Positions 3,201 through 6,200 of a DNA stretch of 64,000 nucleotides are shown one piece after another. Within the stretch, counting starts at the first letter, position 1. Each line of letters begins with the position of its first letter. The DNA is taken from the NCBI RefSeq assembly GCF_001677475.2, contig NZ_CP015229.1; one strand, given 5' to 3'. Made by a program: the position numbers. The DNA is from Escherichia coli (lineage in GTDB: Bacteria > Pseudomonadota > Gammaproteobacteria > Enterobacterales > Enterobacteriaceae).

Positions 3201-6200
3201 CTCCGGCAGCATTCATTACGACAATGTGGCACCGTGTTTTCTTGGTGGTATGCAGTTGATGATCGAAGAAAACGACATCATCAGCCAGCAAGTGCCCGGG
3301 TTCGATGAGTGGCTGTGGGTGCTGGCGTATCCGGGGATTAAAGTCTCGACGGCAGAAGCCCGGGCTATTTTACCGGCGCAGTATCGCCGCCAGGATTGCA
3401 TTGCGCACGGGCGACATCTGGCAGGCTTCATTCACGCCTGCTATTCCCGTCAGCCTGAGCTTGCCGCGAAGCTGATGAAAGATGTTATCGCTGAACCCTA
3501 CCGTGAACGGTTACTGCCTGGTTTCCGGCAGGCGCGGCAGGCGGTCGCGGAAATCGGCGCGGTAGCGAGCGGTATCTCCGGCTCCGGCCCGACCTTATTC
3601 GCTCTGTGTGACAAGCCGGATACCGCCCAGCGCGTTGCCGACTGGTTGGGTAAGAACTACCTGCAAAATCAGGAAGGTTTTGTTCATATTTGCCGGCTGG
3701 ATACGGCGGGCGCACGAGTACTGGAAAACTAAATGAAACTCTACAATCTGAAAGATCACAACGAGCAGGTCAGCTTTGCGCAAGCCGTAACCCAGGGGTT
3801 GGGCAAAAATCAGGGGCTGTTTTTTCCGCACGACCTGCCGGAATTCAGCCTGACTGAAATTGATGAGATGCTGAAGCTGGATTTTGTCACCCGCAGTGCG
3901 AAGATCCTTTCGGCGTTTATTGGTGATGAAATCCCGCAGGAAATACTGGAAGAGCGCGTGCGCGCGGCGTTTGCCTTCTCGGCTCCTGTCGCCAATGTTG
4001 AAAGCGATGTCGGTTGTCTGGAATTGTTCCACGGGCCAACGCTGGCATTTAAAGATTTCGGTGGTCGCTTTATGGCACAAATGCTGACCCATATTGCGGG
4101 CGATAAGCCAGTGACCATTCTGACCGCGACCTCCGGTGATACCGGAGCGGCAGTGGCTCATGCTTTCTACGGTTTACCGAATGTGAAAGTGGTTATCCTC
4201 TATCCACGAGGCAAAATCAGTCCACTGCAAGAAAAACTGTTCTGTACATTGGGCGGCAATATCGAAACTGTTGCTATTGACGGCGATTTCGATGCCTGTC
4301 AGGCGCTGGTGAAGCAGGCGTTTGATGATGAAGAGCTGAAAGTGGCGCTGGGGTTAAACTCGGCTAACTCGATTAACATCAGCCGTTTGCTGGCGCAGAT
4401 TTGCTACTACTTTGAAGCTGTTGCGCAGCTGCCGCAGGAGGCGCGCAACCAGCTGGTTGTCTCGGTACCAAGCGGAAACTTCGGCGATTTGACGGCGGGT
4501 CTGCTGGCGAAGTCACTCGGTCTGCCGGTGAAACGTTTTATTGCTGCGACTAACGTGAACGATACCGTGCCACGTTTCCTGCACGACGGTCAGTGGTCAC
4601 CCAAAGCGACTCAGGCGACGTTATCCAACGCGATGGACGTGAGTCAGCCGAACAACTGGCCGCGTGTGGAAGAGTTGTTCCGCCGCAAAATCTGGCAACT
4701 GAAAGAGCTGGGTTATGCAGCCGTGGATGATGAAACCACGCAAAAGACAATGCGTGAGTTAAAAGAACTGGGCTACACTTCGGAGCCGCACGCTGCCGTA
4801 GCGTATCGTGCGCTGCGTGACCAGTTGAATCCAGGCGAATATGGCTTGTTCCTCGGCACCGCGCATCCGGCGAAATTTAAAGAGAGCGTGGAAGCGATTC
4901 TCGGTGAAACGTTGGATCTGCCAAAAGAGCTGGCAGAACGAGCTGATTTACCCTTGCTTTCGCATAATCTGCCCGCCGATTTTGCTGCGTTGCGTAAATT
5001 GATGATGAATCATCAGTAACATCTATTCATTATTTTAATCAGGCCGGGTTTGCTTTTATGCAGCCCGGCTTTTTTATGAAGAAATTATGGAGAAAAACGA
5101 CAGGGAAAAAGGAGAAATTCTCAATAAATGCGGTAACTTAGAGATTAGGATTGCGGAGAATAACAACCGCCGTTCTCATCGCGTAATCTCCGGATATCGA
5201 CCCATAACGGGCAATGATAAAAGGAGTAACCTGTGAAAAAGATGCAATCTATCGTACTCGCACTTTCCCTGGTTCTGGTCGCTCCCATGGCAGCGCAGGC
5301 TGCGGAAATTACGTTAGTCCCGTCAGTAAAATTACAGATAGGCGATCGTGATAATCGTGGCTATTACTGGGATGGCGGTCACTGGCGCGACCACGGCTGG
5401 TGGAAACAACATTATGAATGGCGAGGCAATCGCTGGCACCCACACGGACCGCCGCCACCGCCGCGCCATAACAAGCACCATGATCATCGTAATGACCACC
5501 GTGGCGATCATCGTCCGGGGCCTGACAAACATCATCGCTAAATATCAATGCCGGATTGCCATCCGGCATTGACTGTAAACTTAACGCTGCTCGTAGCGTT
5601 TAAACACCAGTTCACCATTGCTGGAGGAATCTTCATCAAAGAAGTAACCTTCGCTATTAAAACCAGTCAGTTGCTCTGGTTTGGTCAGCCGATTTTCAAT
5701 AATGAAACGACTCATCAGACCGCGTGCTTTCTTAGCGTAGAAGCTGATTATCTTAAATTTGCCGTTCTTCTCATCGAGGAACACTGGCTTGATAATCTCG
5801 GCATTCAATTTCTTCGGCTTCACCGATTTAAAATACTCATCTGACGCCAGATTTATCACCACATTATCGCCTTGTGCTGCGAGCGCCTCGTTCAGCTTGT
5901 TGGTGATGATATCTCCCCAGAATTGATACAGATCTTTCCCTCGGGCATTCTCAAGACGTATCCCCATTTCCAGACGATAAGGCTGCATTAAATCGAGCGG
6001 GCGGAGTACGCCATACAAGCCGGAAAGCATTCGCAAATGCTGTTGGGCAAAATCGAAATCGTCTTCGCTGAAGGTTTCGGCCTGCAAGCCGGTGTAGACA
6101 TCACCTTTAAATGCCAGAATCGCCTGGCGGGCATTCTCCGGCGTGAAATCTGGCTGCCAGTCATGAAAGCGAGCGGCGTTGATACCCGCCAGTTTGTCGC

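Follow-up and report, generated by a model that had tools for sequence, protein, structure and literature searches.

The yaaX gene of an Escherichia coli lineage: a conserved Trp-rich core followed by a His/Asp-rich tail of variable repeat number

Why does YaaX, a small protein of Escherichia coli with a predicted signal peptide, end in a histidine-rich tail that is longer in some strains than in K-12, and what might such a tail be for? The question is raised by positions 5233 to 5541 (plus strand) of a 64,000-nucleotide stretch of E. coli DNA (assembly GCF_001677475.2, contig NZ_CP015229.1), here called the window. A sequence-only reading of this stretch had described the product as secreted, with Trp/Gly-rich repeats and a His/Pro/Arg-rich low-complexity tail, and had suggested periplasmic metal binding. 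The computational follow-up favours a reading that we regard as very likely as a whole: an ordinary yaaX, encoding an exported protein of three parts, with a tail that varies by slippage and with expression induced through the Rcs envelope-stress system. Within it, the identity of the gene as yaaX and the repeat-based account of the longer tail are close to certain.

Identity of the gene and origin of the longer tail

The features of the gene, all on the plus strand, are the following.

5222-5226, plus strand: Shine-Dalgarno sequence AGGAG, 6 nt before the GTG start codon; AGGAGT is invariant in 8/8 aligned genera
5233..5541, plus strand: yaaX coding sequence, 102 codons and a stop, DUF2502 protein (open reading frame listing, Pfam match, annotation)
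5233..5301, plus strand: predicted signal peptide, residues 1-23, with cleavage inferred after AQA (read from the sequence; family members share the AQA/(A,S,G)EITL junction)
5302..5436, plus strand: conserved Trp-rich core, residues 24-68, with six-residue periodicity (invariant columns; predicted local distance difference test, pLDDT; Pfam; ratio of nonsynonymous to synonymous differences, pN/pS)
5437..5538, plus strand: low-complexity His/Asp/Arg/Pro tail, residues 69-102, predicted to be disordered, a variable region (pLDDT; composition; divergence)
5449..5463, plus strand: poly-proline tract P73-P77 (CCG CCG CCA CCG CCG), length-variable
5479..5514, plus strand: three tandem 12-bp units (X-Asp-His-Arg) (DNA alignment; Tandem Repeats Finder)

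The open reading frame at 5233..5541 begins with GTG and encodes 102 amino acids, and its translation contains both protein strings quoted in the sequence-only reading, at residues 45-69 and 73-102. The GTG is favoured over an ATG at codon 4 as the start, because of the spacing of AGGAG and because the position aligned with it is ATG in other genera. The protein matches Pfam PF10697 (DUF2502) with 54 bits against a gathering cut-off of 27 (E = 2.1e-14). Its gene lies between thrC and the convergent pair yaaA-yaaJ, the position of its orthologues elsewhere, including E. coli and Shigella. The DNA of yaaX was matched in 5,424 of 5,426 complete E. coli genomes, with yaaX or "DUF2502 domain-containing protein" as its annotation. 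The name yaaX given to it earlier is thus upheld by family, annotation and locus context alike. The window protein is identical to WP_000738725.1 ("MULTISPECIES ... [Enterobacteriaceae]"), and the exact 102-aa sequence occurs in 335 blocks of a public collection, from E. coli and Shigella; gene, DUF2502 family and the very protein of the window are therefore already known in public databases. The nearest complete genome is that of strain A34 (98.1% identity over 12 kb). What the window holds is an ordinary chromosomal yaaX of an E. coli lineage, in the form of an ordinary natural allele.

YaaX comprises 102 aa in the window and 98 aa in K-12. Tandem Repeats Finder reports a period of 12 with 2.9 copies at 5480-5514, and the units encode H-DHR, N-DHR and G-DHR. 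A clean in-frame 12-bp indel separates the window allele from the common two-copy allele found in B2-type strains, and the alleles of this tail form a series:

1 X-Asp-His-Arg unit: 94 aa, P0126
2 X-Asp-His-Arg units: 98 aa, B2-type strains
3 X-Asp-His-Arg units: 102 aa, the window and Shigella
4-5 X-Asp-His-Arg units: 107-108 aa, E. marmotae

A second series is provided by the poly-proline tract, with alleles of 4, 5, 6 and 8 Pro in E. coli, which vary independently of the unit number. A proline-related ribosome pause has been observed in yaaX (PMC13410324); it coincides with the five-proline run at 5449-5463, and translation of the gene is documented by it. Both the impression that the tail exceeds that of K-12 and its designation as a variable region, to be checked by aligning orthologues, were thus confirmed. 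What has been gained is a specific cause for the longer tail, namely the number of 12-bp units, an independent length polymorphism of the poly-proline tract, and two diverged haplotypes. Tail variation of this type is ordinary low-complexity evolution and not a new kind of system.

The window-type tail family accounts for about 1,250-1,400 of the 5,426 complete E. coli genomes (23-26%), nearly all with two units; the three-unit tail has an exact match in only 4 of the 5,426, with one or two more being close. The remaining complete genomes, about 75%, carry the K-12-type tail (RHHKKA[P/H]HDHHGGHGPGKHHR). That the longer tail should be an artefact of sequencing or assembly, the outcome named at the start as fatal to the idea, is next to inconceivable. 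GC-rich low-complexity repeats are indeed error-prone, and frameshifted versions of the gene exist in databases; however, the difference consists of an in-frame 12-bp unit, the 335 blocks with the identical protein include several complete E. coli and Shigella chromosomes, and an independent E. coli assembly (GCA_019136195.1, L007) is 99.98% identical to the window over 6.3 kb. On the strength of that assembly and of the 335 listings the length difference is taken as real.

Conserved core and low-complexity tail

The N-terminus of YaaX, by sequence reading, displays the n-, h- and c-regions of a signal peptide, with Lys 2 and Lys 3, a hydrophobic stretch from residue 7 to 19, and Ala-Gln-Ala preceding the conserved AEITL; neither a lipobox Cys nor a twin-Arg motif was found there. 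In the AlphaFold model, built on an alignment of 41 homologues, residues 4-20 form a helix. The core that follows contains 6 Trp in 45 aa (P about 6e-5), and its Trp/Gly pattern recurs every six residues, with a self-alignment score of 43 vs 23 +/- 4.8 in 2000 shuffles (p = 0.0035). These features support the earlier description of a predicted signal peptide followed by Trp/Gly-rich repeats. Among 41 aligned homologues, 20-22 core columns are invariant, including five Trp, and the window protein has all 22. The pLDDT reaches 86-94 across about residues 30-70, and it is the core that carries the Pfam DUF2502 match, since on its own it scores 56.7 bits (E = 2.9e-15). Between genera, the pN/pS of the core amounts to 0.07-0.18. 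The low pN/pS, the invariant columns and the documented translation together argue for a real gene under constraint. A profile search of the Protein Data Bank (PDB) with YaaX returned nothing at E <= 10, and a Foldseek comparison of the model with the PDB gave no match below E = 3, the best one (E = 3.4) being meaningless. In NCBIfam, the only matches of YaaX were below threshold, to the signal-peptide regions of Spy, Phr and FomA.

A profile of the core alone collected 105 clusters among 1.84 billion representatives, so that the DUF2502 family is a small one. Its distant members consist of a signal peptide, one or two GDRD.RG.YWDG..WRD modules and a charged low-complexity tail; some of them (among P0176-P0194, P0208 and P0261) have a tandem-duplicated core, and a subset ends in CPPGQAKKGNC, which is absent in YaaX. 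The E. coli paralogue YpeC (P0117, P0170, P0171-like) shares with YaaX the signal peptide followed by the same core. It differs in its locus and in its tail, which is rich in Arg, Gly, Tyr and Trp with a short His-Gly end, not in His and Asp, and as a further difference ypeC is a target of MarA/SoxS (PMC5684230).

The tail of the window protein contains 10 His in 34 aa (29% His, 12% Asp), with P about 3e-9 at a typical His content of 2.3%; the His-rich, low-complexity character attributed to it earlier is real, and the His excess goes beyond chance. Its pLDDT falls to 41-66, and searched alone against Pfam the tail gave no match. In the family, intact tails are 24-49 aa long (84 representatives) and cannot be aligned between genera; their composition averages His 29%, Asp 19%, Arg 15%, Pro 11% and Gly 10%, with His ranging from 14 to 45%. 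Arg and Lys together amount to 5.6 residues per tail vs 6.2 for Asp and Glu, and only 2 Cys/Met occur in all 89 intact tails, none of them in that of the window. All 89 end in His/Arg-type residues, with a terminal (W/K)-K-H-H/R motif. Compensation between acidic and basic charges across tails was considered and dismissed, as no correlation was seen (r = -0.03).

Codons of the form VRY (CAY His, GAY Asp, CGY Arg, AAY Asn, GGY Gly) make up 20/25 in the tail vs 19/68 elsewhere in the gene, a bias also present in five other genera. This run of codons marks the tail as a cryptically simple coding repeat, which can drift one substitution at a time and as units are gained or lost. The pN/pS of the tail, 0.16-0.65, lies above the values of the core and below 1, and positive selection on the tail is not supported by these values. 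Taken together, the retained reading frame, composition and terminal motif and a pN/pS below 1 argue for a tail that is maintained and not junk.

Frameshifted yaaX tails are present in 13/97 database representatives (including P0006-P0008, P0011, P0014, P0015, P0017, P0018, P0022, P0023 and P0030); the shifts fall within the poly-Pro/VRY tract, with a hydrophobic result (…MIIVAIIVR…). Misassembly in a GC tract rich in repeats may have produced them, or the genes may be genuine pseudogenes. Open reading frames in other frames or antisense also run across the tail, at 5309-5569 (minus strand), 5332-5535 (minus strand) and 5348-5572 (plus strand). No evidence was found for these as genes; they seem to arise from the periodicity of the VRY codons, and exactly such hydrophobic translations appear in the frameshifted database variants.

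Two tail haplotypes and the flanks of the gene

Compared with K-12 YaaX (b0005), the window gene occupies the same locus and matches the same DUF2502 hidden Markov model; the signal peptide and core are one residue apart (Pro 70 in the window, Leu 70 in K-12). Over the first 207 nt the two genes are 99.0% identical, whereas the tails agree to 80% with 12 gap columns, K-12 carrying the different tail haplotype RHHKKAPHDHHGGHGPGKHHR. By the Nei-Gojobori method, the synonymous divergence (pS) between window and K-12 is 0.04-0.06 in signal peptide and core, with a nonsynonymous divergence (pN) of 0; in the tail pS rises to 0.40 and pN to 0.16, a ratio of 0.41. The B2-type protein WP_000738734.1 (ST131, Nissle 1917, S88, E2348/69; ~1,250/5,426 genomes) belongs to the tail family of the window, its gene being 100% identical over the first 207 nt and followed by the same downstream hairpin without an insert. 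It differs by having two units (98 aa) and by H71Y and P76S. The window tail is 80% identical to that of E. marmotae, a value equal to that for window vs K-12, and the K-12-type tail resembles that of E. fergusonii in layout (…RHHKPNKHHNDHRGDHGPGRGHR). The tail is thus a sharply bounded block of either old divergence or accelerated, slippage-driven change.

The elements on either side of the gene are as follows.

3733-5019, plus strand: thrC, the upstream flanking open reading frame
5041..5075, plus strand: terminator hairpin and T-run of the thr operon, the upstream boundary of the yaaX unit (fold of 5036-5082: -20.5 kcal/mol, z = -4.0)
5079..5232, plus strand: conserved upstream region, putative regulated promoter/5' leader of yaaX (multi-genus alignment; function inferred)
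5545..5572, no strand assigned: perfect 12-nt inverted repeat with a 4-nt loop, common to the convergent 3' ends of yaaX and yaaA (-19.2 kcal/mol on the plus strand and -23.2 on the minus strand; z = -5.0 and -6.9)
5581..6357, minus strand: yaaA, peroxide stress protein, the convergent neighbour (open reading frame; annotation; Pfam H2O2_YaaD)
6427-7857, minus strand: yaaJ, flanking open reading frame

The order thrC-yaaX-yaaA-yaaJ is kept in E. marmotae, E. fergusonii, Enterobacter, Citrobacter, Kosakonia and Leclercia. Long invariant blocks extend over ~150 bp upstream of yaaX in Escherichia, Enterobacter, Citrobacter, Kosakonia and Leclercia, examples being A.AAATT..CA.TAAATGCGG and ATTG..GA.AAT.ACA, and the same blocks are identical in K-12. 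The thrC-yaaX intergenic region is probably a stress-responsive promoter or leader. A search of 4900-5700 against Rfam gave only a chance-level snoRNA match (E = 0.29). Scans of 4950-5700 for sigma-70 promoters and terminators detected nothing on the plus strand near yaaX, the sole minus-strand match being no better than chance, and no T-run was found at the inverted repeat at 5545-5572.

At the yaaX-yaaA junction, the spacer measures 152 bp in K-12, with an insert of the REP/BIME type (repetitive extragenic palindrome/bacterial interspersed mosaic element), as opposed to 39 bp without an insert in the window. In K-12-type strains the extra sequence comes to ~112 bp (L005, about 897-1050), named RIP1/BIME in K-12 annotation. 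A REP-like element at window positions 43498-43533 (minus strand) agrees with the REP half of the K-12 insert except for 3 mismatches, and chance would give no such match; from this recurrence of one half, the insert is seen to be a dispersed REP-type repeat. Three states of the junction occur: a window-type hairpin, and a K-12-type hairpin that either carries the insert or lacks it. A strict linkage between tail type and insert was rejected: in L008 and L009 the long tail occurs together with the insert, and L012 shows a K-12-type hairpin that lacks the insert. In these same three Shigella-type sequences (L008, L009, L012), which encode the same 102-aa YaaX, gene calling gives split or shortened products for yaaJ and thrA, and once for thrC, which suggests pseudogenisation of the neighbourhood. 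Several complete E. coli genomes (H78-H85), otherwise collinear with positions 1-12000 of the window, carry an IS621 (IS110-like) insertion that the window lacks.

Envelope stress and the function of the tail

Published transcriptomics tie yaaX and its relatives to the Rcs envelope-stress regulon. Induction of the gene depends on RcsB in K-12 (PMC2731931), and colicin M induces it together with other Rcs genes (PMC3599342). With a LolCDE inhibitor, under which Rcs is activated, yaaX rose 8-12-fold and its paralogue ypeC 42-60-fold (PMC5105897). Furthermore, the promoter of a DUF2502 homologue in Serratia needs rcsB (PMC8470065). In one further study yaaX is merely listed in a transposon table (PMC5638813), and PMC2559885 was discarded as a yaaX paper, the match being a false one to 'YAAxxx'. 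In cusS mutants the expression of yaaX is altered together with that of zraP (PMC10920338); this is the sole metal-related mention, and no metal-responsive regulon for yaaX or its relatives was found in the literature. The link to Rcs would carry over to the window allele by virtue of the conserved upstream blocks, which are identical to those of K-12.

In the favoured reading the Rcs phosphorelay would switch yaaX on, and the product, exported via Sec and presumably cleaved after Ala 23, would become a periplasmic protein of 79 aa. Its compact Trp-rich core may make a conserved contact in the envelope, and the disordered tail may serve as a flexible, multivalent element responsive to charge or pH, with His and Asp side chains that probably also hold divalent cations. 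The tail would change through slippage-type gain and loss of units and, separately, of Pro codons, and apparently would also be reshuffled by recombination; slippage and this apparent recombination would together account for two deeply diverged tail haplotypes on otherwise near-identical genes. Any specific biochemical role assigned to the tail is doubtful and should be taken as tentative.

Metal binding by the tail is plausible from its composition. In SlyD, HypB, the RcnA loop and ZraP, metals are bound by low-complexity segments rich in His and Asp, and ZraP is also a periplasmic protein linked to envelope stress. YaaX resembles ZraP, the C-terminal tail of SlyD and the RcnA loop in its high His and Asp content within a flexible, low-complexity stretch. 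That YaaX is a periplasmic metal-binding protein, with a His/Asp tail that chelates Zn, Ni, Cu or Co and with a capacity tuned by tail length, would also agree with the frequent HH, HD and HxH patterns, with a His content of 29% in the window tail and in the family mean alike, and with the appearance of yaaX alongside zraP among the genes changed in cusS mutants (PMC10920338); still, we consider it rather unlikely. The evidence on regulation points to Rcs, basic residues equal acidic ones in the tails and Cys/Met are nearly absent, the K-12-type tail has only one Asp, and the tails of paralogue-type proteins (YpeC-like P0117, P0105) and distant relatives are rich in Arg, Gly, Tyr and Trp and not in His. 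With such relatives, a generic charged disordered region is no worse an explanation than a specialised metal site. Homology of YaaX to ZraP, SlyD, RcnA or other metal-binding families was detected neither by sequence nor by fold (Pfam, NCBIfam, PDB, Foldseek), and the YaaX tails differ from these segments in their parity of Arg/Lys and Asp/Glu and their near lack of Cys and Met. Moreover, binding of Ni or Zn in vitro is a property of nearly all His-rich peptides, so that binding alone would be no proof of function. At the opposite extreme, and with a similarly low probability, the tail may be a functionally neutral product of slippage, only the core being of importance and the length being of no consequence. 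Such neutrality would explain why tails of 24-49 aa cannot be aligned between genera, why frameshifted tails occur in databases and why the pN/pS of the tail exceeds that of the core, and a walk along VRY codons can indeed reach His, Asp, Arg, Asn and Gly one mutation at a time. It is harder to reconcile with a pN/pS below 1, with the persistence of a charged low-complexity tail in distant relatives, and with the reading frame, composition and terminal motif being kept in all 89 intact representatives, the more so as the other two frames would give hydrophobic tails, which are rare.

It is, on the other hand, very improbable that balancing or diversifying selection, imposed for example by phage, colicins, host exposure or niche chemistry, has kept the two E. 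coli tail haplotypes as a long-standing polymorphism. In favour of such selection are a block of pS ~0.40 with sharp borders in a gene whose pS is otherwise ~0.05, a window-type tail equally near to E. marmotae and to K-12 together with a K-12-type tail laid out like that of E. fergusonii, and the fact that both haplotypes are common in complete genomes (~23-26% vs ~75%). The pN/pS of 0.3-0.4 is, however, not above 1, the window-type family looks concentrated in B2-like strains, which fits plain lineage inheritance, the sample is tiny (~90 nt), and the same pattern would follow from recombination of short tracts out of a diverged Escherichia or from faulty alignment of the repeats. The fuller version, in which the 3' 100 nt of yaaX represent a two-haplotype polymorphism of roughly species-level age, kept by selection and overlaid by tuning of the unit number, is to be judged just as improbable; if it were true, the length and charge of the tail would set the binding of protons, metal or anionic polymers by an Rcs-induced periplasmic protein according to host niche.

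Several points weigh against the favoured reading of yaaX as a slippage-variable, Rcs-induced export gene. The localisation of YaaX and its cleavage after AQA are predictions, as is the contact of its core in the envelope. The disorder of the tail is read from low AlphaFold confidence, with which it is consistent. The frameshifted database tails, if real, would imply that the tail is dispensable in some lineages. The pS of the tail derives from ~20 synonymous sites and an alignment of low complexity, and repeated slippage could inflate it. Finally, no RcsB box was found in 5020-5232 with at most one mismatch to the consensus TNRGAN4TCYNA, matches in the window as a whole being below the number in shuffled sequence. 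This is a weak test; Rcs control may be indirect or proceed via a divergent site.

As a discovery the window allele is of small value, the gene, the family and the exact protein being public already. For the DUF2502 family, the best functional lead is Rcs envelope stress rather than metal homeostasis, and the natural one-, two- and three-copy alleles, together with the K-12 allele, provide a ready series for probing the function of the tail.

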